Source: Candidatus Levyibacteriota bacterium (GTDB taxonomy: Bacteria > Patescibacteriota > Microgenomatia > Levybacterales > UBA12049). Taken from it: a stretch of DNA of 64,000 nucleotides. The DNA lies in assembly GCA_027459745.1 (NCBI GenBank), contig DAIDHL010000001.1:168290-232289 (forward strand). The letters are read 5' to 3'. Positions within the stretch are counted from its first letter, which is position 1. Each line of letters begins with the position of its first letter. The translations under genes were made by a program, and so were the position numbers. The notes beneath the pieces were generated by a model. The model made no database searches, was not told the DNA's origin, and saw only the letters and a program-made list of their open reading frames with translations. Of this stretch, positions 32,458-62,581 are shown piece after piece.

Positions 32458-33351
32458 TTAAGACTGATGAATATTAAGAAGTACTTTTCCATCTTGTATA
32501 CCTAAAGTGCTATTTGGATGAGTACTCACATAAGCATTAAGAGTATTGGCAAGCCTTTGCTTCATGGTCTTTATAGATCCTTCTACTCCCGATTCTAAAG
32601 TTCTCTTTCGTAATGATTCAGAAATTCTTTGTTTACTGTCACGTTCGTATAAGATTCCACCCATCTCTTCATAGGGAGATTGTAAGAGGTATTCTCTTAG
32701 CGAACGAAACATATGATCATATTCTGCAATTCCAGTAGAATGTCCTTCTAAACCAAAGTAGCATAAGTAGCTTAAATGAGGATCTTTATATGGGGAATAA
32801 CGTTCTGTGCCATCGGTTTCCATGTTTTTTCTAATTCTTTCAGAATAGCCTGTTGCGAATTGTTCGTCTCTTTCTATAAGATATACAGCTATTTTTGAGA
32901 GTACTTGTGAAGGAACATTCGGCTCCAATTGTTTATCTGTATCTTCCTCAGTATCTGGCGTCTCTCCATTAAAATAAGCCATCATATTTTTAATTTCCAT
33001 CTGAGTATCATTTTCGATTGTTTCAACACTAAACGGCATTTCAGTATCAGGATCGGGGTTATGTAATGATATTTTTTTTGTCAGCGTAGTGCTGCTGTCT
33101 TGTTCACCCGGATTTAGAAAATTTATGAGAACTTTTTTACTAGATTCAAAGAGTTCTGCAGCAAAAGTCTCGTCTATTTTCCATTCAGGATGAAGTTGAT
33201 GAATATATTGAAAAAACAAGTCTTGCAAATCAGGATAACCTTGTGAAAATCGGAAAGAAGAGAACAATAGTTTGGTGGCATACTGAATGGATAATTCTCC
33301 TTTTTGTCGTTCATCTGAAGAACTACCGTCAATCTGAGCTTCGCCTGGCAT
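32458..33351 (-). CDS. hypothetical acidic protein
   Basis: 297-aa ORF, no motif recognised. Confidence 0.4.
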   Translation of the reverse strand: MPGEAQIDGSSSDERQKGELSIQYATKLLFSSFRFSQGYPDLQDLFFQYIHQLHPEWKIDETFAAELFESSKKVLINFLNPGEQDSSTTLTKKISLHNPDPDTEMPFSVETIENDTQMEIKNMMAYFNGETPDTEEDTDKQLEPNVPSQVLSKIAVYLIERDEQFATGYSERIRKNMETDGTERYSPYKDPHLSYLCYFGLEGHSTGIAEYDHMFRSLREYLLQSPYEEMGGILYERDSKQRISESLRKRTLESGVEGSIKTMKQRLANTLNAYVSTHPNSTLGIQDGKVLLNIHQS

Positions 33352-33399
33352 ACGTAAATATTATAATATTATTGATAGTATATCAACAATTCAAAAATT

Positions 33400-33567
33400 T
33401 CGGTCAAACTTACATAGATCCTAAGCCGGGGGTTCTTCGTGTGCTGCTTGGTTCGATATGTCCCGCTGGGTTGGCATGGTCATATTCTGGCTTATCGAAT
33501 CGCGAGTTTAACAAGCAATATCAGGCTATTCTTGATATAGGAAGTGGTAATTTTGCAATGAGTACCC
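33400..33567 (+). repeat. direct repeat copy A (168 bp; 164/168 identical to 39820-39987, last 131 bp perfect)
   Basis: Direct sequence comparison; mismatches only in the first 40 bp. Confidence 0.9.
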
Positions 33568-33656
33568 TCAATGCAAATACCATCGAACCGCTTTTGCTTT
33601 GGATCTTTAACTTAATGCATGTTTTTGGGTATAAAGAAAGAGCCTATCGTGTATAA
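33400..33656 (+). pseudogene. 3' remnant of a large serine recombinase gene (no start codon)
   Basis: Encodes ...GQTYIDPKPGVLRVLLGSICPAGLAWSYSGLSNREFNKQYQAILDIGSGNFAMST..., nearly identical to the C-terminus of the recombinase at 38484-40016; upstream part of ORF 33243-33656 overlaps the opposite-strand gene. Confidence 0.6.
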
Positions 33657-33668
33657 TACCATTAGTAT

Positions 33669-33992
33669 ATGAGTACCAAGGCAGATAATGAGATATTGCC
33701 AGAAGATAAGATACAACTCAATCAGGATCAAGAAAATTTGATTACGTTGGCCTTCGCAAAACAGATACCAGTTGACGATGCTGAATTCATTGAAAAGATA
33801 CAAAAACAGGACAGGCCATCAACTGGTGCTTATATTGAGATTGAGGAGTATTTTACAAAGAAATATGGCGAAGAATTTGGGAGAATCTTTCTTGCTACAA
33901 TTACTGGTGGAGAAGCAAGCTACAAAAATACAATAGAGAAGCTTGAGAAAGAACGAGCTCAGAAAAGAATACGTCTTGGAAATAGTAATTAG
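33669..33992 (+). CDS. hypothetical protein
   Basis: 107-aa acidic ORF inside the element. Confidence 0.4.
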   Translation: MSTKADNEILPEDKIQLNQDQENLITLAFAKQIPVDDAEFIEKIQKQDRPSTGAYIEIEEYFTKKYGEEFGRIFLATITGGEASYKNTIEKLEKERAQKRIRLGNSN

Positions 33993-34213
33993 TCAGGAAA
34001 AATATCTGATGCTTTCACCTTTAATGCCTTAATCACTCTATAGATGTTCTGGAAGGTTGTATTGATCTCTCCCCGTTCAATTTTTGCGTAATAATTACCT
34101 TTCATGCCAATCGCCTTAGCCACTTCCTCTTGAGTAAAGTTACCATTTACTCTTGCGTGACGTATCTTTTCGCCGAATTCTTTTTGAGCTTTATGATTAA
34201 CCTTGGTTGCCAT
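33989..34213 (-). CDS. XRE-family HTH transcriptional regulator
   Basis: FGEKIRHARVNGNFTQEEVAKAIGMKGNYYAKIERGE helix-turn-helix. Confidence 0.8.
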   Translation of the reverse strand: MATKVNHKAQKEFGEKIRHARVNGNFTQEEVAKAIGMKGNYYAKIERGEINTTFQNIYRVIKALKVKASDIFPD

Positions 34214-34240
34214 AGATAAAGTATAACAAAAATGGCCTCT

Positions 34241-34265
34241 CAGTGATACATTCAGCAGTGATACA
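34241..34265 (+). promoter_or_regulatory. two direct CAGTGATACA repeats between the XRE gene and divergent ORF
   Basis: CAGTGATACA at 34241-34250 and 34256-34265 in the 60-bp divergent intergenic region. Confidence 0.35.
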
Positions 34266-34273
34266 ATGAGCTT

Positions 34274-34678
34274 GTGGATACGAGTACACTATCTGAATCA
34301 TTTAAGCAAAAAGTACACAAGGCAATGGAGAAACCATATGTATGGCAAGAAGTTGAAGATCTCCAGACTAACGAACAGCTACTCGCACAGAAATATTTGT
34401 ATGGGAAGTTAAGTGGCAGAGAATTTGATCGTCGACTTACACGAATTCAATCGCAAGTTCCTTCACTTATTATTAAATCTCTCGATGAACTGGAAGCAGT
34501 TATGGATATATTGAATATTGGAGAAGAAATAAAAAGGAAAACGCTTCAAGATATGTCTTTTCAATATGAAAAAGCTGTAAAACAAGGATACTTATGTCGT
34601 TTTAGCGTTTGGTTTTATGAAACTATATATAAAGGAACTGCGATGTATTGCGCAACACAAATATATATAAGTAAATAA
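34274..34678 (+). CDS. hypothetical protein
   Basis: 134-aa ORF (GTG start) divergent from the XRE gene. Confidence 0.4.
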   Translation: MDTSTLSESFKQKVHKAMEKPYVWQEVEDLQTNEQLLAQKYLYGKLSGREFDRRLTRIQSQVPSLIIKSLDELEAVMDILNIGEEIKRKTLQDMSFQYEKAVKQGYLCRFSVWFYETIYKGTAMYCATQIYISK

Positions 34679-34695
34679 AAGTAATGTTCCCAAAC

Positions 34696-37131
34696 CTAAA
34701 AAATTTCAGATATTTTTTTTGCTGATTGAAGTAGCTCATATTTTGTATATCGTGGACTTTGTAGATTAATTCTGGGATTGTCTAAATGTATTGGGTTAAT
34801 TTGATAGATATCAGACAAAAATAGTTTAAATTTGCCGGTTTTCTCGTAAGGTTCTATGTTCTTAATTTTACCCATCCATCTTATTACTTTATTTGGTGCT
34901 ACTTCATATAATGCAAGATATTTGAGCTTCTTTTTTGCCTCGGGAGATAGTTTAACTGCCCACCAGGCATGCTGTTCAATAAATGCTCGGCTAAGACCGT
35001 CATTTTTTGTTGCGCAAATGATAGTATCATAATCTTTATCTATAGATTTAGCTACCCTAAAAACCTTCTTTTCAGGAATATGATCTTTTTGTACAATCTC
35101 AACTGGTTGTTTTGATTTTTCTAGTCTAGAGAATATTCTATCAAACCATTCGATCGCAGATTCCCCGTCTTTTCTAATCAACGGATCGCTATCTTTTGCA
35201 TGAGCTATATCATTACGATATTCCCTTAAATCAGTAAGCCTTTTTTGTAATTCTTCCTTAGAGCCGAAAATTGCTTCAAATAGATTCCAGTTTTTTAGTA
35301 TAATCTTTTGATAATCTCCCACATCACAATAATTCAGATAATCTCTTGTAGAAAAGTCAGTAAGATTTTTATATGGATTACGCTTAAGCTCTGAAGCTAT
35401 TTTAATACTTACATTAACCTTAGTATCCTCAGGTATAGATGTATTCCAATAACCTTGATTTACTGATAATGCTGTTTGTATTGTATCTCTTAGTCTTACC
35501 TCAATCATATCTATCGCTTTTTTAGGATCATTTGATAGTAGCTGCATAATTCTGCCTCCAGTTACTTTTTTAAATTCTTCAAAAATATAATTGGCTCGTT
35601 CTAGGATGAATTGTTCATATCGATTATTTTCAACTGCTTGGCTATAAGGAATCATTTGCACTTTTAGTGTTTCTCCAAAATTTGGATTTTCCTTGCTATA
35701 AGTACTAAAATAATCGCTAGGCGCTTGTTTGGAAATCTCTTTATTAAGTTCTGCAGGGATGAAACAGAAGTTAGCGATTGAGTATTCACTATACTTTATA
35801 CCTTTTGATCTTGATTTTAGGAATTCTTTAGGAAATATATGATGTCTCTCAGCAAGGTTTATGCTTGCACATATGGAATCATCTAAAATAATATTATTAT
35901 TGTTTTTAAAATGCTTGGGACTTTTGCTGGCTAAAAGACAAAAGAAAACATTTCTAAGTGAGGATTTCGTTGTTATTTTTGTTTCGATAATTTCTTCTGG
36001 GGTAAGCGTAATTGGATAGTTAATTTCTACGTTGTCCTTTCCTTCAATAAAGCTGTCAAATATATCTTTTCGATCTTCCCACATGTGTGTATCACGTTGA
36101 CTACCGTATCTTTCGCTTAAGGAAGCTTTCCAAAACCATTCCTGAACTTTTTTGGTTACATTTTGGTTGAATGATGCTTTTGGATATTTATAATAAAGAT
36201 ATATAAGAAGAGAGAGAATTGCAGGGTATGGTAAAAATTCATATGTTTTTACTCCTAAATTTGCAGTAAGATGATCCACAGCTTTTTCTACAGATTGGCA
36301 TACTTTAGGCCATGCTGATTTAATCTCTTCTTTTTTAAGTTCAAATAAATATTTTTGGTTACAATATCCTTTAATAATTAACGCAATAGCTAATAATACT
36401 GGTTCTATTGGAATTTCTCCAAAAGATTTTTTGTCATTTATACTCTTACTTAAGGCCTCATACTTCTCTCGTATGTCAAAATCATCTCCCCACGTACTTG
36501 CGACAACGAGGTCAAAAACTGATAGTTTTTTGCCTCCTTGATTAATTCTTTCAAATATTTCAATCGCATCAGCGAGTTCTTTCTCTTTTACGCTAATTAC
36601 AGATAAAGGGTAATTAGCAAAAATTCCAGTCAGTTTTTGAAATATCTTTTTTCTTTCATCAGTCAAGTTCTTAAATATTTCTAAGGATGTTTCCTGACTA
36701 AAGATATCTCTTACAGAAGCAAAATGATTATCTTTTGTCTCTTCCTCGAAAAAAACCTCATCATCAAAATTAAAGCAGATATTACCATAATTAATGGTAT
36801 CTACTGTTAATCCATTAAACGTAACAAATAAAGCAGTCGCTCTTTGTTGTCCATCAAGAATGTATCTCAAATCTGAGTGGCCGTCTGGTTTTGGTAAATT
36901 TAATTCAGGGAAATCCTTATAAAAAAGATTATATTGTCTATCTGCGTCCCAAACAAAAAAACTTCCTATTGGATACTCTCTATATATTGAGTCTAGCAAG
37001 TCAATAATTTTTTTACGTCCCCACACGAATTTTCTCTGAAAACGCGGTATGCGGAGTGTTCCATTTGATATATCGTAAAGAAGATTAGATAATTTGTAAT
37101 TTGATTTTATTTCAATCTTAGATATTTCCAT
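34696..37131 (-). CDS. GmrSD-like nuclease: DUF262 (ParB-like) + DUF1524 (HNH/His-Me) + C-terminal HEPN-like RNx3H domain + unknown C-terminal module
   Basis: RIPRFQRKFVW...YPIGSFF...LDGQQRATAL (DUF262); ERHHIFPKEFL...NFCFIPAELNK (DUF1524); EYRNDIAHAKD (Rx4H); final 150 aa unassigned. Confidence 0.7.
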   Translation of the reverse strand: MEISKIEIKSNYKLSNLLYDISNGTLRIPRFQRKFVWGRKKIIDLLDSIYREYPIGSFFVWDADRQYNLFYKDFPELNLPKPDGHSDLRYILDGQQRATALFVTFNGLTVDTINYGNICFNFDDEVFFEEETKDNHFASVRDIFSQETSLEIFKNLTDERKKIFQKLTGIFANYPLSVISVKEKELADAIEIFERINQGGKKLSVFDLVVASTWGDDFDIREKYEALSKSINDKKSFGEIPIEPVLLAIALIIKGYCNQKYLFELKKEEIKSAWPKVCQSVEKAVDHLTANLGVKTYEFLPYPAILSLLIYLYYKYPKASFNQNVTKKVQEWFWKASLSERYGSQRDTHMWEDRKDIFDSFIEGKDNVEINYPITLTPEEIIETKITTKSSLRNVFFCLLASKSPKHFKNNNNIILDDSICASINLAERHHIFPKEFLKSRSKGIKYSEYSIANFCFIPAELNKEISKQAPSDYFSTYSKENPNFGETLKVQMIPYSQAVENNRYEQFILERANYIFEEFKKVTGGRIMQLLSNDPKKAIDMIEVRLRDTIQTALSVNQGYWNTSIPEDTKVNVSIKIASELKRNPYKNLTDFSTRDYLNYCDVGDYQKIILKNWNLFEAIFGSKEELQKRLTDLREYRNDIAHAKDSDPLIRKDGESAIEWFDRIFSRLEKSKQPVEIVQKDHIPEKKVFRVAKSIDKDYDTIICATKNDGLSRAFIEQHAWWAVKLSPEAKKKLKYLALYEVAPNKVIRWMGKIKNIEPYEKTGKFKLFLSDIYQINPIHLDNPRINLQSPRYTKYELLQSAKKISEIF

Positions 37132-37178
37132 ATTTGGATTATATCAAACACAACAACAAGTAAACAGCTTTAGAACAT

Positions 37179-37958
37179 CTACTCATCCACAATCTTCATC
37201 CAGTTTCCCCACGTATGCTTTGTACCAATCAAGGTATCTTTTGTAGTCACATAGATGCTAACTTCTCCCCATTCCTCTCGTAACACAGTACGAGCGCACC
37301 GCATCACTTTTTTCTGTTCATAGGAAGTCTGTGTAACAAGCAGAAGTGTAGGGAATGCTATCTTCATGACGTCTTCATCCCAAGTATCCGCACAAGTGAA
37401 ATATCTTCGAATTTTACTTTTAATAAATCGTTTAGGTATCTTTTCATCAAACAGTTCAAGAAAATAATATTTAGTCTTTGTCCCTTGCTTCGTTACAGAG
37501 AAATAGCCATCAGCTGGGGGTTGCGGAAGATCAACATAACTCGTGAGTTCTATCTTACTAAAAAATGAGACGTCTTTGTCTTGCTCCTTGTAATACTGCT
37601 TTAAAGAGTAAGCAATCTTAGCAATATCACAACAATGGATTTGAAACCGTTGACTCCGTTGCTTTTCTCGATACAGTTGTGACAATATATATGCCTCACA
37701 GTCCTTTTGTGATTTCAAAATCTTCGCTGCTTTACTGGATAAACAATATATTGCCGGCTTAGTACGATTGATAAATGAAGCTTTATCATAAAACTGAACA
37801 ATATATCCTTTATCTACTAAATCTTTAAGCCATTGCTGAATACGAGTAGGGAGTTTATGTTTTAAATAGAGTTGAATAGTTGGTGTATCTAAGAATCTGA
37901 ATTGGTAGAGTAAAAGCATGATAGCTAATTGTTTTTTTGTTATTTTAAATTCTGGCAT
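37179..37958 (-). CDS. Replic_Relax-like winged-helix protein (putative relaxase/replication-relaxation family), paralog of 61670-62434
   Basis: LYQFRFLDTPTIQLYL...IQQWLKDLVDKGYI N-terminus and clear similarity to the second copy (FVTTKD, YYFLELFDE/RYFLDYFDE). Confidence 0.5.
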   Translation of the reverse strand: MPEFKITKKQLAIMLLLYQFRFLDTPTIQLYLKHKLPTRIQQWLKDLVDKGYIVQFYDKASFINRTKPAIYCLSSKAAKILKSQKDCEAYILSQLYREKQRSQRFQIHCCDIAKIAYSLKQYYKEQDKDVSFFSKIELTSYVDLPQPPADGYFSVTKQGTKTKYYFLELFDEKIPKRFIKSKIRRYFTCADTWDEDVMKIAFPTLLLVTQTSYEQKKVMRCARTVLREEWGEVSIYVTTKDTLIGTKHTWGNWMKIVDE

Positions 37959-38142
37959 AATAAAACCTCACAACACATACTATTTATATATAAATAGAAA
38001 GATGTGGTACATTATATCTTACTCAGCCGTAAACGCAAGCATTTTTTGCATGCACGCTACACGCAAGATTCTTAACGAGCAAAAACGTAAACTGAAGGGT
38101 GCACATTGGCTAAATACTTGGGGAATTAGCCATTATTCCGCT

Positions 38143-38187
38143 TGACAAGCACTTAATTAATTTATATACTGTCTATATATAGACAGT
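38143..38187 (+). promoter_or_regulatory. promoter TTGACA-17-TATACT overlapped by perfect 20-bp palindrome ACTGTCTATATATAGACAGT (38168-38187)
   Basis: Palindrome sits at the predicted +1 of the 92-aa ORF / serine recombinase operon. Confidence 0.5.
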
Positions 38188-38203
38188 CATTATTTATCCT
38201 GCA

Positions 38204-38482
38204 ATGATTGACAATTCAGAAAAGAAATCTCGACAATTTAATCTAAATTATTTTCCTCAGTCATCCATTTTTGCTAACTCACTAAATGAAATGTTCCCAG
38301 AACAGCAACATGAAGATAAAACTGTCAAGAAAGCAAGAGAAGTTCTAGGAGAAAATTATACTTTAGAACAAACAAAAGAGCTGATGGCTTCTTATGAGTT
38401 TATTATTCAAAAGTGGCTGGAAGAATATGAGAAAAGCATTTTTAACAATAAAACATTAAAAGAGCTACTTCAAAAAAATTAA
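38204..38482 (+). CDS. hypothetical protein co-transcribed with the serine recombinase (possible accessory/RDF)
   Basis: 92-aa ORF ending 2 nt before the recombinase start. Confidence 0.4.
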   Translation: MIDNSEKKSRQFNLNYFPQSSIFANSLNEMFPEQQHEDKTVKKAREVLGENYTLEQTKELMASYEFIIQKWLEEYEKSIFNNKTLKELLQKN

Positions 38483-38483
38483 T

Positions 38484-40016
38484 ATGGCTGGAGCTGAACT
38501 AACTAAACAAGCAATTATTTACATCCGAGTCTCAAGCGAAGAACAGGTTGAAAATTTTTCATTGGATACACAAGATGATATTTGCAGAAAAGAAGCAACT
38601 AGGCGAGGTTTTCAAATAATTGAAATCTTTCGGGAAGAAGGAAAGTCTGCAAAAACTATAACGGGCAGACCAGAGTTGATGAAGCTATTAGATTATTGTC
38701 GAAGAAACCGCAGACATGTTGATGCAGTATTTGTATACAGACTTGATCGTATATCTCGACAAACATCTGACTACTTAGCTATTCGAAAACGCTTGGCAGA
38801 TTATGGCATTTCCTTAATTTCAGCTAATGAACCTACTGGAAACTCCCCAACAGAGAAATTATTGGAAACAATTATTGCCAGTTTTGCTCAACATGATAAT
38901 GATGTTCGTTCAGAACGAACAAAAAATGGCTTACGCACAAGATTTCTTGCTGGTATGTGCACGGGCAAAGTGCCAATAGGATACGTTATGGAAGGCGGTT
39001 ATGCAGTAAAAGATAAAAATTTTGAAAATATGAAGAAAGCTTGGAATCTTATGGCAACAGGAACAAAGAGTCTTTCAGAAATGGCTGCGATTATGAATGA
39101 ATGGGGAATACGAAAAGTTGTTGCTGGTAAAGAGCATAAACTACGAATGCAAACAGTCGGTAGATTATTTAGACATAAATTTTATATGGGTGTTCTGACC
39201 TCTACAAAATATCCAGAAGAGATTCGAGGACAACATGAGGCAATGGTAACGGAAGAGCAATTTTATAAAGTACAAGCAATTATAGATGGCAGGAATGTCA
39301 GTGGGATGACTATTGGTAAGCGACTCAATGAGAACCCAGATTTTCCTTTACGACGAGTAATTAAATGTGGAAAATGTGGAGGAGTTTTATCCGGCGCTTG
39401 GAGTAAGGGGAGATCAAAACGATATGCTTACTATATCTGTAAAAACCGTTGTGGTGCTCCATCTATTGCTGTTAAAAAATTGGACGACTCACTCATACAA
39501 TACTTCCAAGATATTACGCCTACTAAAGATCAACTAGATGTATTTCTGATTGTGTTAAGAAAAATGTTTTATCAAAGCCTATCGGGGCTTCAAGCAAAAC
39601 GAGTGATAGCTCAAGAAGAAATATATAAGCTAAAACAAATGAGACAAAAGCTTGTAGAAAAAAATTTGGCAGGGGTCTATTCAGATGAGATATTTAAAGA
39701 GCAAAGGGTTATTATTGAAGACAAAATTGCTACTGCTGAAAGTATTTTAGGACAGACAATTTTTGATAAATACAATTTTGATGATGTCGAGAAATTTATG
39801 CGTGCAAAATTTAAGGATCTCGGTCAAACTTACATAGATTCTGAGCCTGGGGTTCGTCGTGTGCTGCTTGGTTCGATATGTCCCGCTGGGTTGGCATGGT
39901 CATATTCTGGCTTATCGAATCGCGAGTTTAACAAGCAATATCAGGCTATTCTTGATATAGGAAGTGGTAATTTTGCAATGAGTACCCCATCTGGGACGAT
40001 GTTCGTACCTATCTAG
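38484..40016 (+). CDS. large serine recombinase (resolvase/invertase N-domain + recombinase domain + zinc ribbon)
   Basis: AIIYIRVSSEEQ catalytic Ser motif, ...VYRLDRISR; CGKCGG...C zinc ribbon; 510 aa. Confidence 0.85.
   Translation: MAGAELTKQAIIYIRVSSEEQVENFSLDTQDDICRKEATRRGFQIIEIFREEGKSAKTITGRPELMKLLDYCRRNRRHVDAVFVYRLDRISRQTSDYLAIRKRLADYGISLISANEPTGNSPTEKLLETIIASFAQHDNDVRSERTKNGLRTRFLAGMCTGKVPIGYVMEGGYAVKDKNFENMKKAWNLMATGTKSLSEMAAIMNEWGIRKVVAGKEHKLRMQTVGRLFRHKFYMGVLTSTKYPEEIRGQHEAMVTEEQFYKVQAIIDGRNVSGMTIGKRLNENPDFPLRRVIKCGKCGGVLSGAWSKGRSKRYAYYICKNRCGAPSIAVKKLDDSLIQYFQDITPTKDQLDVFLIVLRKMFYQSLSGLQAKRVIAQEEIYKLKQMRQKLVEKNLAGVYSDEIFKEQRVIIEDKIATAESILGQTIFDKYNFDDVEKFMRAKFKDLGQTYIDSEPGVRRVLLGSICPAGLAWSYSGLSNREFNKQYQAILDIGSGNFAMSTPSGTMFVPI
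39820..39987 (+). repeat. direct repeat copy B (inside the 3' end of the serine recombinase gene)
   Basis: See copy A. Confidence 0.9.
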
Positions 40017-40086
40017 CTTCACTTGATAAAAAAGAAAAAGAAGTCCTTAAATTGATGTTTTCCTCAAAAAGTAAGGAGGAAACACA

Positions 40087-40578
40087 ATGTTAGATTTCTG
40101 GAAACGAAAACAAACAAAGGTTGTTTCAGTTTTGCTTACCTCAATTCTACATGATGAAACAACATTTTATCAAGCATTCTTAAAAGATTTACAAGCTGCA
40201 AAAAGAGAGGTCATCATTGAGAGTCCGTATATTACGAGTTATCGAATGCGGATGCTTTACCCAATCTTTGCAAAATTACTTCATCGAGGGATAAAAGTAT
40301 TTATCATAACTCGTCCTCCACAAGAGCATGACAGCGAAAAGATGCGTGCACAAGCAGAGATAGAAATTCGTCGCTTTGAACAAATTGGCATTCAAGCACT
40401 CCTTTGTGTTGGTAGTCATCATAGAAAGCTTGCAATGATTGATCGGAATATTTTATGGGAAGGTAGCTTAAATATTCTCTCTCAGTCATACAGTCGGGAA
40501 TATATGCGAAGAATTGCCAGTCACCAAATCACACAGGATACCTTTATATTTTTAAAATTTGATAAGATTATTTATTGA
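40087..40578 (+). CDS. PLD-family (single HKD) nuclease, Nuc-like
   Basis: GSHHRKLAMIDRNILWEGSLN contains HxKx4D; 163 aa as in plasmid Nuc endonucleases; strong RBS AAGGAGG. Confidence 0.7.
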   Translation: MLDFWKRKQTKVVSVLLTSILHDETTFYQAFLKDLQAAKREVIIESPYITSYRMRMLYPIFAKLLHRGIKVFIITRPPQEHDSEKMRAQAEIEIRRFEQIGIQALLCVGSHHRKLAMIDRNILWEGSLNILSQSYSREYMRRIASHQITQDTFIFLKFDKIIY

Positions 40579-40640
40579 GAGTATAAAAATTGTAGTTTAT
40601 GTTTGCGAAAACAGAAAATATGTGGTAGAAAGGAGGTACT

Positions 40641-40877
40641 ATGGACGATAAAAATGTTGCTATTGAAAAATTTGGACTGGTTATTGATGCATTAACGTAT
40701 GCACATGAGAATAATCTGGATATTAACAGCAAGGAAGATGTTAAAAAAATATTACTTGCACTTGAGCATGATCAGGTAAATGATGAGGAAGTTGACGAGT
40801 TTATGCTTTTGCTTCAAGCAGGGAATATGTTTATAGAAAAAGATGCCCAAAAGCGAAAAACATCAATGCTTAATTGA
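40641..40877 (+). CDS. small acidic hypothetical protein
   Basis: 78-aa D/E-rich ORF with RBS GGAGG. Confidence 0.4.
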   Translation: MDDKNVAIEKFGLVIDALTYAHENNLDINSKEDVKKILLALEHDQVNDEEVDEFMLLLQAGNMFIEKDAQKRKTSMLN

Positions 40878-40889
40878 CATAAACGTGCC

Positions 40890-41201
40890 CTACGAGTACT
40901 TCATCCCAAAAGAAGCATCCGACATGAGAAGGTAAATAATCCCTTCGAAAAAACCAATGATGCCTGGAATACCTGTCCAGCAGAAAAACAGATAAATAAC
41001 TCCTTGAATTGGTCTGCCTAAATAGAATTTATGGATACCAATGTCACCTAGAAATATAGCAAGCAAAGCAGCAGTAATTCTGCTTTTCGTTGTTCTCATT
41101 TCCATTTGCGAAGTGAGATTAGTACGCACTTGTCGTCTGTATGCTTCTTCCTCTTCAATTTTCTTTTTTTCTGCTTCAGTGAGTGCCATAAGTGGCAACA
41201 C
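40890..41201 (-). CDS. TM2 domain protein
   Basis: LAIFLGDIGIHKFYLGRPIQGVIYLFFCWTGIPGIIGFFEGIIYL is the TM2 two-helix signature. Confidence 0.65.
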   Translation of the reverse strand: MLPLMALTEAEKKKIEEEEAYRRQVRTNLTSQMEMRTTKSRITAALLAIFLGDIGIHKFYLGRPIQGVIYLFFCWTGIPGIIGFFEGIIYLLMSDASFGMKYS

Positions 41202-42314: not shown

Positions 42315-42926
42315 TTAAGGATCACCTTGTAAAAACGTCCTCGGATTCACAGGAATCCCATACACATTTATTTGGAAATGGACATGCGGCCCCGTTGCAT
42401 TCCCCGTTTCTCCTTCATACCCAATAACATCACCTGTATCAACAGTTGCTCCCACTTTCGTATTCAGTGCTTCCATGTGTCCATAAAGACTCGTGACATG
42501 ATCACCGTTGTCTATAATCACATGTATACCATACCCCGAGTTATCCTCTCCTGCATAAATCACCGTGCCTTTCGCGAATGGATGAATCGGGTCACCTTGT
42601 TCTCCGTTTGGGTCTGCAATATCAATGCCCGTATGCAGAATTTGGTACGGCGGATCCGGTTGTCCAAACTCCAATGTTACGACTCCCTGCATCGGCCACG
42701 CCATTGCAGCAGTGAAATCTGTAATAGTTCCATCAAGATTATGAATCTCAACCGTATTTGTCTTTGTATCAAGAGTAACGAGTTTATCCGATACAGATTG
42801 AAAACCGAAGCTGGTTATTACGATGATGCCAATAAGCGGAAGCAGGAGAATAAAGAGGAACATACCGGCAACAATTTTTAATTCATTGCGAAAGGAGAAA
42901 AGGGTAAAAGCAGCAAAAGGTAGCAT
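42315..42926 (-). CDS. M23 family (LytM) peptidase with N-terminal TM, likely T4SS-associated cell-wall hydrolase
   Basis: HTGIDIA...GTVIYAG...GYGIHVIIDNGDHVTSLYGHM...GETGNATGPHVHFQI. Confidence 0.8.
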   Translation of the reverse strand: MLPFAAFTLFSFRNELKIVAGMFLFILLLPLIGIIVITSFGFQSVSDKLVTLDTKTNTVEIHNLDGTITDFTAAMAWPMQGVVTLEFGQPDPPYQILHTGIDIADPNGEQGDPIHPFAKGTVIYAGEDNSGYGIHVIIDNGDHVTSLYGHMEALNTKVGATVDTGDVIGYEGETGNATGPHVHFQINVYGIPVNPRTFLQGDP

Positions 42927-42929
42927 TGG

Positions 42930-44762
42930 TTAGAGATATATCTCCTTTGGATCTGTTGTCAGCAACGGATGTTCTTTTTCGCTTGCGACTACTTTGACAG
43001 CCACATGATTTTGGTCGGCAATAATCAGTGCCTCGCCTCTATCGCAGGTAAGGAGGAATTGTTGTTCATATTCACTTAAATGAAATTCTTCAGTCACTTT
43101 TTTTATTGTGGTTGTGTCCTGACGCATCAGAATGCGCAAAGAGGACTGTGACGCAATCGCTCGTCCATAATCTTGTCTGAGAAAATCTTGGGCTTGCTGG
43201 GAGATAATTGTAACACCAAGATAATATTTTCTGGCGCGCCGAACCAATCCAGCGATAAATCGTGCACTTTCTTCATGTTCAAGTAACATCCATCCTTCAT
43301 CAATGACGAGAAGGCGTTTCTGCGGATGAGACTTCACTTGAGCATCAACAAAGTTTGCAATCACCACCATCATAATTTGCCGTATGGATTCATGCAGGTC
43401 TTTAATATCAAAAATAACCAATCGGTTATCAAGCTGAATATTGGTTTGTTCATTAAAAACGTTTGCGAGTGAACCTTTGACAAACCGCTCGAGCCGATGA
43501 CAAATATCTTTTTGTTTCATAACTCGAAGTGTCTGGTATAAATCCTCAATAAGTGGGAAATCTTCTTTGGCTTTTCCTTTTTTCTTCTCACTCATGGTAT
43601 ATCCAAAGTTTTTGTATGTTTGTAATATTGCCTTATCCATCACGGCTCGTTCTTCAGGTGATAAACTCCCAACCATTAACGAAATAATTTCAGTGAGATT
43701 TTGGATGTGTTCTGCCAGGGCATTGTCGCCAGTAAATGACACAGTTGAAAAATCAAACGGATTTATCTTTTCTTTACTGGAACTGGATAATTTGATGAAT
43801 GTTCCTTTCACAGATTTTGCCAGTTGTTTATATTCTCCCTCGGGGTCAATGACAATCACTTTCGTCCCCTGCATGAGATGACGAAGGATTTCTACTTTTG
43901 TGGTATAACTTTTCCCACTGCCAGATTGAGCAAAGATTATAGAGTTTGCGTTATTAAGAGAGAAACGATCAACAATAACGAGTGAGTTATTTGATTTATT
44001 TATCCCATACAAAATACCTGACTCTTGAACGAGTTCTGAAGAAACAAACGGAAACGTAAGTGCTGCACTGGAACTATCTAGGTTTCGTCTCTGCATCAAT
44101 ATATTTTCCCCTCGCGGCAAAATAGATTGAATTCCTTCAAGCTGTTGAAACGTTGCAGTTTTGATGTAGAACAAACGACTGGACATAACTGTTTCAAGAA
44201 TTTTAGTGATTTTATTCAACTCCGCTAACGAATCGGCGGTGATTGCCATGTAAATAGAAATTTGAAATAGTTTCTCTTTGCCGCGTTGAATGTTATCTTT
44301 CAACTGAATTGCAGAATCTAATGGGTCAGTGATTTCAGATCCAACAATTCTACCGTTTTTAATCATTGCCCGTTTTGTTGCTTCAAGTTCGGTGATCTTG
44401 CGGTTTAATTTTGGCAAAGCCAGTAGGGGATCAACTTGTTCAATATGGTATGAGATATCTATGTTGTAATTGAAGTTGATCAGCATGTTCAGCCAGCCAG
44501 TACCTGCAACATACGGATAGCCTGAGATAAAAAGTGTACGAATATATGTATCACCCATTTGAATGTATGATGAACTTTCTTCAAGTCCTGAGTACGACAG
44601 GAGATCAATTTGGTCTTGCTCGCCAAAATTAAATTGGAAGGACTTCTTGAGCAACTCCTTCTTCTTGTTTTTTCGTTTTAGCTTCTTACGCAATTGCTTT
44701 GCAAGTTTTTGCATATCAACTGTGGGTAATTTTTGTAATGGTAGTTGGGATAAGTTAAACAT
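42930..44762 (-). CDS. VirB4-family conjugation ATPase, C-terminal 610-aa portion
   Basis: Walker A IFAQSGSGKSYTTK, Walker B RLLVIDEGW; starts with ATG overlapping the stop of the upstream ORF by 8 nt. Confidence 0.8.
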   Translation of the reverse strand: MFNLSQLPLQKLPTVDMQKLAKQLRKKLKRKNKKKELLKKSFQFNFGEQDQIDLLSYSGLEESSSYIQMGDTYIRTLFISGYPYVAGTGWLNMLINFNYNIDISYHIEQVDPLLALPKLNRKITELEATKRAMIKNGRIVGSEITDPLDSAIQLKDNIQRGKEKLFQISIYMAITADSLAELNKITKILETVMSSRLFYIKTATFQQLEGIQSILPRGENILMQRRNLDSSSAALTFPFVSSELVQESGILYGINKSNNSLVIVDRFSLNNANSIIFAQSGSGKSYTTKVEILRHLMQGTKVIVIDPEGEYKQLAKSVKGTFIKLSSSSKEKINPFDFSTVSFTGDNALAEHIQNLTEIISLMVGSLSPEERAVMDKAILQTYKNFGYTMSEKKKGKAKEDFPLIEDLYQTLRVMKQKDICHRLERFVKGSLANVFNEQTNIQLDNRLVIFDIKDLHESIRQIMMVVIANFVDAQVKSHPQKRLLVIDEGWMLLEHEESARFIAGLVRRARKYYLGVTIISQQAQDFLRQDYGRAIASQSSLRILMRQDTTTIKKVTEEFHLSEYEQQFLLTCDRGEALIIADQNHVAVKVVASEKEHPLLTTDPKEIYL

Positions 44763-45348
44763 AGGTATTTGCTAAGAGCATATCAATTGTTTGACCTTTC
44801 AATGCCTGTGTTTTGATTTGAGATGGATTGTAAAAGGAATAAAAAAGATCGAGTAATTCAAGACTTGTTACTTGTCGTGCTTTCATCCCTAATTTTTCTA
44901 TTCCTTTACTCACAATATCTCGTTGCAAGTGAAGATGCTCTTTGACTGTTGCAAAATCGTTCTGTTTTCCGATGTGACGATAAGGAATAACGACGTAAAA
45001 TCGGCGGGAAAGAATTTTATTGCCGGACACCATTTGTTTGATAAAGGAACAATAGGTATCAATTTGCTCTTTGTACATTGTTTCTTTCTCCTGTAATTTT
45101 TTGGCTTTAATCTGTTCCACATAGGAATCAATATCAACTTCACGAACTCTGATTAGCATTTGCAAAGGACAAGGCAATGAGTTTAAAAAGTTTTGAAAGC
45201 TATCAATCAGCACATCTTGCTCTTCCTCACTTTTTAATTCAAAATTAATACTCGATGTTTCAAGCACCAAACGATATTCATTATTTGGTAATACTAAGAT
45301 ATTATCCTTTACTTCTTTAATCTGAATTTGTCGGCGGCTGCTCGCCAT
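44755..45348 (-). pseudogene. VirB4 N-terminal (CagE/TrbE/VirB-type) domain as a separate 197-216-aa ORF, so split or frameshifted virB4
   Basis: YRLVLETSSINFELKSEEEQDVLIDSFQNFLNSLP...RRFYVVIPY aligns to the first 200 aa of VirB4 proteins; combined length 826 aa equals intact VirB4. Confidence 0.5.
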
Positions 45349-45349
45349 C

Positions 45350-45865
45350 TTATTTGATTTGTTCAAGACCAACATCGAGTCCTCCTTTCTTATTTGTTTT
45401 GACAAAAAATGTAAACGCAGGATTTTGCAATACAGTTTCCAGTCGTATCATGTCTGCCCCTTCTAATACGGGAACTACCGTTTTCTCTTTGGCGGTTGAC
45501 CTCATCTTCTTAAAAATTTTGAATGGTTTCTTTTCAATTTTCGGCAGATACATCTCACGTAAGTAGGTCTCATTTTTATTCAGCACATACCATCTTGGTC
45601 GAAGATTATATCGAAGTAAAATACCTGCCCAATTCAAGACAACCTTTCCTTTTATCCGCAGCGAAAGAGTGACACAAATGATCGCAACAATAAACGCGAT
45701 AACAATTTTTATCACACTCACATGGAGTTTCGGTGGAAGAAGAATAAATTCGACTGTTGTCCAGAAGACAGGAACCATTAATAAAAGAAGTTGTGTCAGA
45801 TTTAAACTCCCTGCAATTCGGTCTTCAACTGTCGTAATTTGAGCTGGAATCACTCTTGTTCTCAT
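45350..45865 (-). CDS. small two-TM membrane protein, VirB3-like (putative)
   Basis: Position immediately upstream of virB4, hydrophobic hairpin LLLLMVPVFWTTVEFILL...VIKIVIAFIVAIICV. Confidence 0.35.
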   Translation of the reverse strand: MRTRVIPAQITTVEDRIAGSLNLTQLLLLMVPVFWTTVEFILLPPKLHVSVIKIVIAFIVAIICVTLSLRIKGKVVLNWAGILLRYNLRPRWYVLNKNETYLREMYLPKIEKKPFKIFKKMRSTAKEKTVVPVLEGADMIRLETVLQNPAFTFFVKTNKKGGLDVGLEQIK

Positions 45866-47157
45866 GCGTTGATATACCTCCGTTTTAGTTTCGCTTCAGC
45901 ATTGTCATCTTCGGTATACCCAGCGTTTGACCCCTCTTGTTTGTGTGTCGTCATCGTGTTGACCATCTGACTTCCCATATGAATAAGAGCGCTCAGTCGG
46001 GATGTATAAAACATCATTTGAAACATCCAGGTAGGAATTCGCAGAAGTGTCAAGAAAAGCCCGATTGCAATAACTATTGAAAGAAGAGAACTATCGGGAT
46101 TATCTGGCAACGCGAGGAAAGAGGACGCAAGTTGAATCACAACGACATGAACAAAGATCATGAAAACAGTGACAACGTATCCTTTGACCGCTGCTTCGGC
46201 GAAATCTGAGGTTTTCGGTATTGCCCACATCAGAAATATGAAAGGAGAAAGCACACCGGCAAGGGCAACAAGAATGAGGCGGACGATGTACATAAATAAC
46301 AATATGATGGCCACAATGAGAAAGATAACGAAAAAGATAAGCGTAATTAATTTTGTATTGCCTGTTAAGAGACTCACGGGATTAATTGCATTGACCACCC
46401 ATGCATGATCCAACCCTCCGGTTGTATTAATAACTTCCTTGACAAGAGCATTACATGTTGTGATGACGTAATCACAAAGAAACAAAGAGACATTCGCACC
46501 AAGGAAGGATAATCCAATTCTCGGCAATAAATGTTTGAGTTCTATTTCCTCAAACCCAAAGGTTGATGCAGACATGAAATGTAATCCAAGTAGTGCAACA
46601 ACGACAACAAAGAGTGAATCAACAATTCCTAGACTAATTGCCCAGAAATGAAAGACAACAGAATTTGTGAGAAGACTTGGTGTCGTGGTGAGATAGCTAA
46701 TGATTGCATTCACAATAGGTTGTGTAGCGCTTTGTACTACATCCTGCAATAAGCCAATGACGGCGTTAATAAGGACTTGCGCGACTCCATCGTTGGGTGT
46801 TTGCGTAGCAAGTGGTGAGAGCGTAAGTGCTTGCGTTGTGGTACTTGCAGTGGGGCTAAGTAATGCGCCTTGCAGAAGGGAGATAACAACATTTGCTCCA
46901 AGAACAAGAGCTAATCCGATGACGGCATTTCTGATCGTTTTCTTGGCGTTTTCTAACGCTTCCGGATGACCGGTTGAGGTCATGTAGTGATAGCCGCCTT
47001 TGATTAAAAAAAATGCCGCCGAAGCGGACGCGAGAAGAGTAATCAGTTGCAACGTATCATTCGTGTAGTTGCTCATATCCGTTCCTACTGCAAACACAGG
47101 AGGAACGACCATAAGATATGTAATAGCTCCGAAAAGAGCATAGAAAGTCTTTTTCAT
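45862..47157 (-). CDS. polytopic membrane protein: N-terminal VirB2/TrbC-like pilin domain fused to VirB6/TrbL-like domain
   Basis: Signal peptide MKKTFYALFGAITYLMVVPPVFA; GGYHYMTSTGHPEALENAKKTIRNAVIGLALVLGANVV paralogous to the adjacent pilin-like gene; more than 6 further TM segments; start moved to MKK at 47157 (RBS GGAG). Confidence 0.55.
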   Translation of the reverse strand: MKKTFYALFGAITYLMVVPPVFAVGTDMSNYTNDTLQLITLLASASAAFFLIKGGYHYMTSTGHPEALENAKKTIRNAVIGLALVLGANVVISLLQGALLSPTASTTTQALTLSPLATQTPNDGVAQVLINAVIGLLQDVVQSATQPIVNAIISYLTTTPSLLTNSVVFHFWAISLGIVDSLFVVVVALLGLHFMSASTFGFEEIELKHLLPRIGLSFLGANVSLFLCDYVITTCNALVKEVINTTGGLDHAWVVNAINPVSLLTGNTKLITLIFFVIFLIVAIILLFMYIVRLILVALAGVLSPFIFLMWAIPKTSDFAEAAVKGYVVTVFMIFVHVVVIQLASSFLALPDNPDSSLLSIVIAIGLFLTLLRIPTWMFQMMFYTSRLSALIHMGSQMVNTMTTHKQEGSNAGYTEDDNAEAKLKRRYINA

Positions 47158-47170
47158 ACTATAAATACTC

Positions 47171-47512
47171 CTACTGAGCAGCCTGTGCTGTACCAAAGGC
47201 AGTCGTTGCAAGATCTGAAACGATGTGCGAGAGTACAAATGCACCAAGCACAACAGCTAAACCAACAGCTGAGTACATAATTGTTTTTTTTGATCGATCG
47301 AGCTGTTCAGGATTTCCTGAACTTGTAATGTAGCCAATTCCTCCCATGACGAAGAACCCGACTGAGATAGCAGCTGCAAGAGAAACGAGTACTTGCACAA
47401 TACTTTGAATAAATGTCTGAATTTTTGTGACATCTGCAGAAGCTGCAAAGGCTGGAGTTACAACGATAAGAGAAGTTATTAGAACTGCTTGTAGGTAGAT
47501 AATTTTTCTCAT
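47171..47512 (-). CDS. VirB2/TrbC-like conjugative pilin
   Basis: Signal peptide, then GGIGYITSSGNPEQLDRSKKTIMYSAVGLAVVLGAFVL two-helix pilin architecture. Confidence 0.6.
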   Translation of the reverse strand: MRKIIYLQAVLITSLIVVTPAFAASADVTKIQTFIQSIVQVLVSLAAAISVGFFVMGGIGYITSSGNPEQLDRSKKTIMYSAVGLAVVLGAFVLSHIVSDLATTAFGTAQAAQ

Positions 47513-48883: not shown

Positions 48884-48915
48884 CGATTAAGCTCTAAAAT
48901 CTTCTTCAGATCTCT

Positions 48916-48980
48916 TGACAATATGCTCATTACATCGTATTATATCCCTATAAGGGGGATATGCCCGCAAGGGGCATAAA
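48916..48980 (+). promoter_or_regulatory. promoter TTGACA-17-TATTAT with two adjacent GC-tract inverted repeats (ATATCCCtataaGGGGGATAT; TATGCCCgcaaGGGGCATA), CsoR-type operators (coordinates approximate)
   Basis: CCC-N-GGG pseudo-palindromes resembling known CsoR operators, immediately upstream of the CsoR-like gene. Confidence 0.5.
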
Positions 48981-48983
48981 TAT

Positions 48984-49259
48984 ATGGCATATCGACCAAA
49001 AGACACTGAGGAAAGAATAACTCATCGTCTCAAAATAGCTCGCGGTCATTTAGATAAAGTTATTTCCATGATGGAAAATGATACCTATTGCATTGATGTA
49101 CTTCATCAAATTCAGGCAGTTGAGGGTGGATTAAAAGAAACCGGAAACCTCGTTCTAGAAAATCATTTAAAGTCTTGTGTAGCTGATGCTATTAGTAAAG
49201 GGAAAACAGAAGAAACAATTGCAGAGGTAATGGAAGTTTTTAGGAGAAAACAATCATGA
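48984..49259 (+). CDS. CsoR/RcnR/FrmR family metal-sensing repressor
   Basis: RLKIARGHLDKVISMMEND.YCIDVLHQIQAVEGGL...HL..C with C-H-C metal ligands. Confidence 0.75.
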   Translation: MAYRPKDTEERITHRLKIARGHLDKVISMMENDTYCIDVLHQIQAVEGGLKETGNLVLENHLKSCVADAISKGKTEETIAEVMEVFRRKQS

Positions 49260-50416: not shown

Positions 50417-50454
50417 CTTAAAGGATTATAAAAGAATACTAAAGAAAATAATAT

Positions 50455-54853: not shown

Positions 54854-54858
54854 TATGT

Positions 54859-61669: not shown

Positions 61670-62434
61670 CTAGTCAACAGTTTCCCAAATATTTACATTA
61701 GATTGTGCAAAGCGAATTTTATCTTTGGTTGTCACAAAAAAGGAAATGTCAGCAAATGATTTCTCCAGTACCGCCTTTCCGTAATATACAATATGCTTTT
61801 TCATTCGCTCATTTGCACAAATAAATAATATAGTTGGAAACGGCGCATCATCTGTATTTGTACTCCAATCTCCTTCGTCAAGGTATTTCAAGTATCCTTG
61901 CAGTCGCCCCCGAATAACACGGGAAGGAGTCGCTTCGTCAAAATAGTCGAGAAAGTATCGCTCAACTTTGTCCTTTGCCAGTTCTGTAATATACGCATCA
62001 GGTAATGGCTCAGGAAAATAATCATACATCCATAATTCAGATTGGGTAAAATAGTCTACTAGTGTACTTTCTCCTTTCTGTTCACAAAAGAAAAAATAAA
62101 GGTCAGCAATAAAAAGATTTCGATTAATAAAATTTTTCGTCTTTGTTTTTTCTTTGTATAACCACCGAAGTAAATTGGGATTGCATGCTTCATTTTCTTT
62201 AAGAATATGTCGTGACTTACTCTCCAAATGAAAGATATATGGTTTTGTCACATTACTTTTATCTGATATACAACCAATATATCCTTTTTCTTTTAAATCT
62301 GTTACCCATGCTTTAATGCGATGGGGGTCTTTGTGATGAAAGAGTTTTTGGAGATGAGAAATAGTAAGAAAGCGGAATCGATAGAGTTGATATTGTAGTT
62401 CTTTTTCTTTTTTAGTGGTCGGTGGTAATACCAT
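61670..62434 (-). CDS. Replic_Relax-like protein, paralog of 37179-37958
   Basis: LYRFRFLTISHLQKLF...IKAWVTDLKEKGYI...FVTTKD. Confidence 0.5.
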   Translation of the reverse strand: MVLPPTTKKEKELQYQLYRFRFLTISHLQKLFHHKDPHRIKAWVTDLKEKGYIGCISDKSNVTKPYIFHLESKSRHILKENEACNPNLLRWLYKEKTKTKNFINRNLFIADLYFFFCEQKGESTLVDYFTQSELWMYDYFPEPLPDAYITELAKDKVERYFLDYFDEATPSRVIRGRLQGYLKYLDEGDWSTNTDDAPFPTILFICANERMKKHIVYYGKAVLEKSFADISFFVTTKDKIRFAQSNVNIWETVD

Positions 62435-62581
62435 AGAGTTTATTAAAATATATCTGTTTGTGAGTCCATTTCGATCCTCTTATATACTATATAAGAATAA
62501 GAAGGATGTATTTCTCATAAAAATAGATTCAAAACCAACAAATTTATGTACCCACACGTAGGTACAATTCGTCGGTACTAT

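Follow-up and report, generated by a model that had tools for sequence, protein, structure and literature searches.

A duplicated serine recombinase gene end in a Levyibacteriota contig, probably from stacked integrative elements

Described systems and the Levyibacteriota locus

In the tycheposons of Prochlorococcus, successive elements pile up at tRNA sites, older elements are pushed away and fragmented integrases are left between them; 910 of the 937 elements in that study were tyrosine-recombinase elements (bioRxiv 10.1101/2020.12.28.424599). Here we describe a locus with a similar organization in a 64,000-nt stretch of contig DAIDHL010000001.1 (assembly GCA_027459745.1, positions 168,290 to 232,289) from a Candidatus Levyibacteriota bacterium. 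The whole stretch is called the window, and all coordinates are counted from its first letter. In the window a 168-bp direct repeat brackets a 6.4-kb segment, and both copies of the repeat, copy A on the left and copy B on the right, encode the C-terminal end of a large serine recombinase (LSR). We consider it probable that the repeat is an LSR-gene 3' end present twice, from two related integrative elements stacked head-to-tail. Three elements seem to stand in tandem in the window: E1, of which only the LSR remnant in copy A is left; E2, the 6.4-kb element, whose intact LSR gene, LSR2, includes copy B; and E3, which starts to the right of copy B.

Like the tRNA accretion arrays, the window keeps an integrase remnant, copy A, between elements, and a parallel stub was found in the metagenome contig L084 (the related loci fetched for comparison carry L numbers). 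Unlike the tycheposon arrays, the present locus has a large serine recombinase, and the separator is an LSR-gene 3' end, where theirs are partial tRNA copies. Further, unlike in tRNA arrays, no tRNA is visible within 33000-41000, where a permissive Rfam scan for tRNA-like elements gave chance-level hits only, and no tRNA fragment is duplicated; the only tRNA in the window lies at 226-297. Because the attachment arm lies within the last codons of the LSR, the repeat between the elements is a recombinase-gene end and not a tRNA fragment. In streptococci, ICEs (integrative conjugative elements), IMEs (integrative mobilizable elements) and cis-mobilizable elements undergo accretion-mobilisation, and E2, a small element without a secretion system beside a probable conjugative element, resembles that arrangement.

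LSR2 shares with the phiC31, Bxb1, A118 and TP901-1 integrases the resolvase, recombinase and zinc-ribbon domains, an attP-like palindrome, and the lack of long flanking repeats in normal members. Unlike those integrases, the LSR2 family apparently has the tRNA 3' end as its target, with at least 24 anticodon types represented, and its attachment arm is inside the recombinase's last codons, so that the tail of the protein and the stop codon come from the partner DNA. The staphylococcal cassette chromosome (SCC) elements, including SCCmec, are inserted at the 3' end of rlmH/orfX by the CcrAB serine recombinases and form tandem composite arrays that include recombinase-less remnants. SCC elements, which belong to staphylococci, differ in having direct repeats of ~15-20 bp, internal ccr genes and a protein-coding target, whereas the present repeat is a 168-bp LSR gene end. 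In mycobacteriophages with integration-dependent immunity, or with integrase genes that overlap attL, attP lies in a gene of the element and integration alters the C-terminus of the product. The LSR tail would similarly change with context (9 aa versus 29 aa, as set out below); the phage systems use tyrosine integrases and a split repressor with a degradation tag.

The repeat and its junctions

The argument rests on six features of the window:

33381..33567, plus strand: copy A, a headless 3' remnant of an earlier LSR gene (E1), of which the last ~62 codons survive
38484..40016, plus strand: LSR2, an intact large serine recombinase of 510 aa with Resolvase, Recombinase and Zn_ribbon_recom domains
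39801..39987, plus strand: copy B, the 3'-terminal part of LSR2 with the P arm of its attachment site (from the repeat and a hidden Markov model, HMM)
33568..39987, plus strand: E2, a 6,420-bp, IME-like integrative element bounded by the two junctions
33552..33577, no strand: junction J_A, an imperfect palindrome, TTTGCAATGAG / TACC / CTCAATGCAAA, that straddles the end of copy A
39988..40021, plus strand: a 35-nt end motif, (C)CATCTGGGACGATGTTCGTACCTATCTAGCTTCA, conserved across loci, the left end (P'-type arm) of E3

A repeat search of the window gave a single two-copy direct repeat, 33388-33567 and 39808-39987, with a length of 180 nt, 96% identity and a spacing of 6420 bp. When identities were counted position by position, 33437-33567 matched its copy B partner at 131/131 positions and 33400-33436 at 33/37, which together make 164/168; a preliminary description of this DNA had given the same identity and the same perfect last 131 bp. 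Weaker homology extends to the left, with 10/19 positions identical between 33381-33399 and the partner starting at 39801, and left of 33381/39801 the identity is at background (mean 27% for ungapped registers). A 68-nt core of the repeat was found at exactly two places in the window, with 0 expected from 100 shuffles. Within the fetched related loci, the repeat DNA matches only LSR-gene 3' ends. The possibility raised at the outset, that the repeat is a common multi-copy element unrelated to recombinases, is thus contradicted by there being two copies in the window, both of them LSR C-terminal coding sequence.

In LSR2, PF00239 Resolvase (E=2.8e-34) covers residues 10-156, and PF07508 Recombinase (E=4.7e-9) and PF13408 Zn_ribbon_recom (E=3.7e-8) both exceed their cut-offs. 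R15 and S17, which are invariant in a 46-sequence alignment of the LSR family, are the conserved catalytic Arg and Ser. Residues 7-321 match by sequence the structures of the TP901-1, A118 and phiC31 integrases, residues 231-321 matching the C-terminal domain structure of A118 integrase, and a structure-sequence search gave no solved-structure relative for the C-terminal ~190 residues. Copy B falls within this ORF (open reading frame), 38484-40016, in keeping with its earlier assignment to the C-terminus of the 510-aa LSR. It ends 29 nt before the LSR2 stop; the last 9 codons and the stop lie beyond the junction, in the end of the neighbouring element.

Copy A is matched by an HMM of the LSR C-terminus at profile positions 16-77 with 83.9 bits, and by tblastn it matches LSR residues 442-510 with 80% identity, a comparison of the kind proposed in the preliminary description. 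Only the C-terminal profile positions 16-77 are present, and copy A is not a functional LSR; HMM and tblastn searches and the ORF list gave no catalytic, recombinase or zinc-ribbon sequence upstream of it. The preliminary description was right that the frame of copy A is open, and wrong that it has no start codon, there being an in-frame GTG at 33243 that gives a 137-aa ORF, 33243-33656. Because this ORF has no recombinase N-terminus, the assignment of copy A as a recombinase 3' remnant stands.

The right ends of the copies were placed by comparison with the relatives of LSR2. The LSR protein tails can be aligned up to '...FA(L/M)ST', the codon with which the repeat ends on the right, and then diverge (GSRTRD, GIRTPD etc.). 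ARAGORN was applied to the 60 loci in which the LSR C-terminus is complete and is followed by 60 nt or more of sequence; in 56 of them it gave an antisense tRNA whose 3' end falls 4-7 nt ahead of the profile position equivalent to 39986/33566 in the window. These junction tRNAs cover 24 anticodon types, and only four loci, the window among them, lack a tRNA at the LSR junction. The antisense tRNA at the LSR end of the relatives indicates that the LSR is the last gene of the element, convergent with the host tRNA, and that the LSR reading frame leaves the element and enters the tRNA. At real tRNA junctions the T-loop sequence is ~5 bp closer to the junction than in the window flanks, a shift that recalls the attP/attB half-site offset of serine integrases and serves as a lead only, not as a test. 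The 33 nt to the right of each copy are identical in register at 16/33 positions (P=0.007), with TCGAACC and TCGTACC at the same offset.

The sequence that follows copy B, CATCTGGGACGATGTTCGTACCTAT..., forms a conserved unit with a PLD gene in L018, L056, L082/L083 and 18 metagenome loci. Nucleotide conservation in these loci lies to the right of the boundary, and the left flanks are unrelated, with at least 8 different non-recombinase flanks; to the left only a 6-nt core, GTACCC or GTGCAC, is shared. In some of the loci the left flank ends in TGGTACCC or TGGTGCAC, the reverse complement of a tRNA acceptor end with CCA. A unit that begins exactly at 39988, is shared by about 20 independent loci and has unrelated left flanks is the end of a mobile element, which makes 39987|39988 a junction. 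In the LSR frame the motif would be translated as PSGTMFVPI and then a stop in the window, and PSGT(M/K/T)FVP(I/M) and then a stop across L018, L056 and L082-L101. The stop is at the same position throughout, as TAG in 11 cases, TAA in 5 and TGA in 1, and among the internal variable sites are GGG/GGT and ATC/ATT, both synonymous. This pattern suggests that a stop for the incoming LSR frame is conserved, as if selected, and that it is provided in trans from the other side of the attachment site. The end motif had 0 matches in a scan of viral contigs.

At the other junction, an inverted-repeat search found that the J_A arms, 33552-33562 and 33567-33577, are complementary at 10/11 positions across a 4-nt spacer, with the palindrome centre at 33564/33565. 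The copy B junction has no equivalent palindrome. Only 0.2% of random window flanks give an equal or better palindrome with the same P arm (empirical P ~0.002). From its sequence, J_A would be an attP-like core composed of the P arm of the LSR gene end and the left end of E2, with the crossover predicted to fall within GTACCC (33562-33567). A counterpart of the J_A palindrome was not found for the PLD-led elements: among six motif-bearing loci searched for a reverse-complement partner of the motif, five had none above shuffles, and L086 scored 21 versus a shuffle maximum of 20, which is not significant. Taken together, the family-wide position of the LSR|tRNA boundary, the conserved unit at 39988 and the J_A palindrome identify the right ends of the two copies as site-specific junctions. 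The repeat accordingly marks the ends of E2 to within a few nucleotides, and E2 has its own intact LSR and ends at 33568 and 39987, as located from the repeat end, the palindrome and the conserved end of its neighbour.

A second stub was found in L084, where 60 nt of an LSR gene, 94% identical to the LSR end of L082, lie directly before the motif and a PLD-led element. L084 is an independent second case of a recombinase-gene stub at an element boundary. In ~50 related LSR loci no direct repeat was seen. Neither were duplicated tRNA fragments found at the left ends of relatives, the matches in L042 and L058 being self-matches from a search range that overlapped the query, and no terminal inverted repeat, sought as the reverse complement of the P arm in 12 kb upstream per locus, scored above shuffled controls. 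The absence of long repeats and tRNA duplications in the relatives is as expected for serine recombination.

Proposed origin of the repeat

Family-wide, the LSR gene closes the element and carries the P arm within its terminal codons, with its frame crossing the junction into the target, usually an antisense tRNA 3' end. In the accretion that we favour, each incoming element would recombine its attP with the junction beside the target, and older elements would be pushed away. E1 would have been in place first, and E2 would then have recombined at the target side of the E1 LSR end, bringing the E1 LSR 3' end directly before the left end of E2. Most of E1 would later have been deleted, the ~185 bp that are left being copy A, and the junction-proximal 131 bp would then have been homogenised with the LSR end of E2, probably by gene conversion. 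The last step is suggested by the clustering of the mismatches, 13 in the left 56 nt and 0 in the right 131 nt, for which the chance under uniform decay is ~1.6e-7. The left part of the homology is 77% identical, about the divergence among LSR family members (e.g., 76.5% to L001). The clustering and the 77% identity together point to E1 as a related but different element, with the junction-proximal 131 bp homogenised. Copy B is followed on its right by the start of the PLD-led E3, which puts E2 within a tandem array.

Accretion of this kind would have several consequences. Copy A joined to the E2 left end would be an exact copy of the E2 attP, and both junctions that flank E2 would be attP-like. 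The excision of a 6.4-kb circle that the preliminary description raised is plausible: if RecA-type recombination took place between the two repeats (131-168 bp), a circle of 6,420 bp would be set free with attP and one intact LSR gene, and a single stub would stay in place. In the present context the LSR tail is 9 aa long; read across the copy A junction, or in the circle, it would have 29 aa.

A number of points weigh against this account. To our knowledge, canonical serine integrases do not pair attP-like sites, nor do they target attR-like or attP-like junctions, and because attP-like junctions are not canonical targets the route by which E2 entered is uncertain. Exact-protein contig look-ups for LSR2, its identical database entry and the PLD protein, and the viral contig scan, found no intact E1, no empty site and no circular junction. 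The perfect 131 bp beside sequence of 77% identity needs an extra event, either gene conversion or mosaic ancestry. No tRNA lies at or near either junction, and the link to a tRNA target rests on the relatives and on a predicted site beyond the window. The left ends of the relatives could not be located, given the lack of terminal inverted repeats and duplicated tRNA fragments, so that the left boundary of E2 rests on the repeat end and the palindrome. Finally, the contig comes from a metagenome assembly, for which perfect repeats of 131 bp are close to common assembler k-mer sizes.

The assembly could itself have produced the structure. E2 might be a free 6.4-kb circle, or lie elsewhere, with the chromosome consisting of the stub and the PLD element, and the two might have been threaded together through the 131-bp repeat. 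The source is a metagenome-assembled contig, the perfect block falls in the k-mer range of assemblers and is shorter than the usual span of read pairs, the junction at copy A looks exactly like the circular attP of E2, and E2 encodes a protein of nicking/replication type. We nevertheless think such threading quite unlikely. The copies differ at 4/37 positions to the left of the perfect block and each variant is tied to its own upstream sequence, an arrangement in which the graph fits both paths; modern assemblers use read pairs longer than 131 bp; and a comparable stub stands before an element in L084, an unrelated metagenome contig.

Alternatively, E2 may have entered as a circle into a pre-existing LSR stub beside the PLD element by a Campbell-type single crossover, performed by RecA and not by the LSR; this corresponds to the entry into a resident remnant named in the preliminary description. 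A single crossover between a circle and a homologous stub gives an element flanked by direct repeats, as seen; a stub before a PLD element with no adjacent element exists in L084, and 131-168 bp is enough homology for RecA. The identity of the right 131 bp beside a differing left part is not explained by such a crossover, for which the stub must already have matched. Further, the repeat ends precisely at the site-specific junction and palindrome centre, as expected for a recombinase, although this is also compatible with the crossover, since the homology ends there. Entry by RecA, which we judge distinctly unlikely, gives the same structure as accretion by the LSR, the difference being the route of entry only.

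A third possibility is that E1 and E2 are the same element, two copies of E2 having been placed head-to-tail by dimer integration or unequal exchange, with the left one later deleted to ~185 bp. The 131-bp perfect identity and the equality of the junction with E2's own attP agree with a dimer, and for other systems such junctions between tandem copies of integrative elements have been described. All 13 mismatches fall in the left 56 nt, however, where 77% identity is like the divergence between family members, and uniform decay is very unlikely to have placed them there; a dimer is in our view very improbable. That the repeat is a target-site duplication, another by-product of insertion chemistry or an unrelated multi-copy repeat can be dismissed: it is direct and brackets an element, but no known target duplication comes near 168-187 bp, the staggered cuts of serine recombinases are of 2 bp and leave no duplication, ~50 related loci have no such repeat, and the sequence, with its two occurrences in the window and its matches limited to LSR 3' ends in the fetched loci, is LSR C-terminal coding DNA. 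A transposon with a target-site duplication was likewise rejected, given the 168-187-bp coding repeat and the absence from E2 of terminal inverted repeats and of a transposase domain (Pfam).

The 168-bp repeat is, in our reading, an ordinary scar of element accretion. The preliminary description had held that a long duplication is not a normal product of a serine integrase, which agrees with the ~50 related loci that lack the repeat, and had favoured tandem accretion or insertion beside a remnant, with which the coincidence of the repeat ends with the junctions, the clustering of mismatches and the L084 stub are all in accord. The tRNA-3'-end family, the element end to the right of copy B and the reconstituted attP-like palindrome go beyond that description. 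A more far-reaching proposal, which we regard as rather unlikely, starts from the P arm in the recombinase gene and from insertion at the target side, by which the internal elements of an array would come to be flanked by two attP-like junctions that are not normally recombinable for a serine integrase. The stub, a retained and homogenised recombinase-gene end of 130-190 bp, would then preserve a perfect chromosomal attP and offer, through RecA, an escape route for a defence-carrying IME that could ride a neighbouring conjugative element, in a clade of tRNA-reading serine integrases, widespread in Patescibacteria, that borrow their stop from the partner site.

Gene content of E2 and E3 and the LSR2 family

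Apart from LSR2, E2 contains six genes, which are listed here with the ORF that lies to the left of copy A:

33669..33992, plus strand: ORF of 107 aa with no Pfam, PADLOC or PHROG match
33989..34213, minus strand: XRE-type helix-turn-helix regulator of 74 aa (HTH_3 E=1.3e-12; PADLOC 'control protein' E=2.3e-12)
34274..34678, plus strand: ORF of 134 aa with no family match (Pfam, PADLOC, PHROG)
34696..37131, minus strand: cargo protein of 811 aa with GmrSD_N (DUF262) and HEPN-like domains, a candidate anti-phage defence nuclease
37179..37958, minus strand: Replic_Relax-family protein of 259 aa, a candidate for a nicking, replication or relaxase function
38204..38482, plus strand: conserved helical protein of 92 aa whose gene lies just before that of the LSR; it may be a directionality factor or a regulator
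32458..33351, minus strand: orphan ORF of 297 aa left of copy A, host DNA or a relic of E1

The 811-aa cargo protein matches GmrSD_N with E=1.5e-30 and HEPN_Swt1 with E=8.9e-6, the latter below the Pfam cut-off, and its PADLOC matches are PDC-M55C (E=3.2e-48) and HEC-05 (E=8.8e-45). The Replic_Relax protein scores 25.1 bits against PF13814, where the cut-off is 25.3, and matches the PHROG 'replication initiation by nicking' with E=1.5e-7; homologues with 25-38% identity lie upstream of the LSR in most related loci. Homologues of the 92-aa protein directly precede the LSR in ~60 loci. This protein has no Pfam or PHROG family, and its 21 database homologues are without a Pfam domain; its AlphaFold model (pLDDT, the predicted local distance difference test, 76.8) has four helices and no PDB fold match at E<=0.001. 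Homologues of the XRE regulator adjoin the PLD gene in L084, L085, L090, L095, L099 and L101. No type IV secretion system (T4SS) or coupling-protein gene was found by Pfam in 33568-39987, nor was an oriT identified. With its own recombinase and a nicking- or relaxase-like protein, and without a secretion system or coupling protein, E2 resembles an IME, a compact one with defined ends that carries a defence-type gene (GmrSD/HEPN). The 297-aa ORF to the left of copy A has no Pfam or PHROG match, and among 5.8 billion proteins its sole match is itself.

To the right of 39988 the window holds the following:

40087..40877, plus strand: first genes of E3, a PLD-family nuclease of 163 aa (40087-40578) and a conserved ORF of 78 aa (40641-40877)
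42315..47253, minus strand: type IV secretion genes for an M23 peptidase, VirB4, a TraC-like protein, PrgI and pilin (Pfam)
61670..63979, minus strand: a Replic_Relax paralogue (61670-62434) and a TraG/TrwB-type coupling protein (62582-63979) (Pfam)

The PLD nuclease matches PLDc_2 with E=8.9e-12 and, in PADLOC, MkoC with E=3.7e-14 and DrmC with E=1.5e-4. Homologues with 50-60% identity come after the motif in L018, L056 and 12 metagenome loci. By tblastn the 78-aa ORF has a homologue in L018; in L086 and L089 the ORFs at this position look similar to it by eye only. In these two loci the sequence AGTACCC, equal to the core of the left junction, recurs ~35-55 nt after the stop of the 78-aa ORF (L086 ~1455-1462 and L089 ~3670-3677, oriented), and the window bases that correspond to this second AGTACCC belong to a TM2 gene. 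One possibility is that the motif, the PLD gene and the 78-aa ORF constitute a recombinase-less cassette of ~0.9 kb with cores at both ends. L056 and L087 were considered as minimal complete 2.4-kb elements (motif, PLD, small ORF, LSR) and rejected, their LSRs being C-terminally truncated and lacking an identifiable right end. In L084 (oriented), a Phd/YefM-ParE-like pair, a Fic protein and a metallophosphoesterase at 278-3705 precede the 60-nt LSR stub.

E3 probably runs from 39988 past the end of the window as one conjugative, ICE-like element. Genes for VirB4, pilin, PrgI, the coupling protein and Replic_Relax are present to the right of 39988, with the integrase and right end outside the window, and the T4SS genes at 42315-47253 are possibly part of E3. 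T4SS clusters occur within 10 kb upstream of the LSR in L008, L019, L013, L011, L055, L064, L037, L052 and L041 (L008 2-4447; L019 136-2866; L037 1491-6230; L052 51-3324; L041 6-2326). The minus-strand pair of Replic_Relax and coupling protein lies 1.7-4 kb upstream of an LSR|tRNA junction in ~35 related loci, and the coupling protein has relatives that are up to 70% identical. Loci with this module include L005, L006, L008, L011, L015, L018, L019, L025 and L069, in which it sits at about 6.0-8.3 kb. Since the window ends in the same module, a third LSR and a tRNA are predicted just beyond 64000. Between the T4SS genes and the module, 47690-59884 is accessory-looking, of a metal/thiol type, with YibE/F, an ArsP-type permease, an HMBD-MauE protein, an M56/M48 peptidase, a DsbA-like thioredoxin, DUF347 and a polysaccharide deacetylase; the block looks like the cargo of a putative large element. 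On the plus strand at 63153-63527 there is a 124-aa ORF antisense to the coupling-protein gene, with tblastn matches at the equivalent antisense position in many loci; most likely its conservation merely mirrors the coupling-protein gene on the other strand.

LSR2 has 1222 homologues, and the named ones are overwhelmingly from assemblies of Patescibacteria/CPR (candidate phyla radiation). Most related loci keep the backbone of Replic_Relax on the minus strand followed by the ~92-aa ORF and the LSR on the plus strand, and in most a TraG/TrwB-type coupling protein is present as well. The tRNAs that abut an LSR have no acceptor mismatches. They show G·U in acceptor pairs 1-3 in 18/150 cases versus 9/183 for the other tRNAs of the same loci (P=0.016), an example being G1·U72 in the tRNA-Glu of L001; the excess is a weak hint, compatible with the element supplying the last few nucleotides of the tRNA. 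In L031 a tRNA-Gly of which just the 3' ~40 nt are present (11491-11530) comes after the LSR, and a complete tRNA-Gly(gcc) lies 7.7 kb farther on at 19242-19314, which suggests that an element of a different, tRNA-fragment-duplicating kind was inserted between the partial and the complete tRNA-Gly. In L052 (6712-9004) two LSR genes converge on a cluster of three tRNAs, one running into tRNA-Glu and its counterpart, truncated where the contig stops, into tRNA-Pro, so that both sides of a tRNA cluster can be occupied. The second C-terminal match in L052 was considered as another stub and rejected, as it more probably belongs to this second LSR, a full one apart from the truncation. In the literature searched we found no description of a serine integrase family that targets tRNA 3' ends, which is not proof of absence, and we know of no characterised serine integrase with such targets. 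The Patescibacteria contain a large clade of serine integrases, apparently undescribed, that insert at tRNA 3' ends with the reading frame crossing the attachment site.

The context of the repeat is more useful than the scar itself, in that it exposes this tRNA-3'-end serine-integrase clade in Patescibacteria and offers natural attP/attB pairs for integrases with tRNA targets. The integrases of the family travel with Replic_Relax, a coupling protein and often a T4SS cluster. The T4SS loci of Patescibacteria have been reported to be mainly chromosomal and without a relaxase (PMC12102498). Replic_Relax may be an overlooked relaxase, and some of these T4SS loci may be LSR-integrated conjugative elements or derivatives of them. 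In sum, the family is relevant to the question of the T4SS loci as present or former conjugative elements of these ultra-small bacteria.

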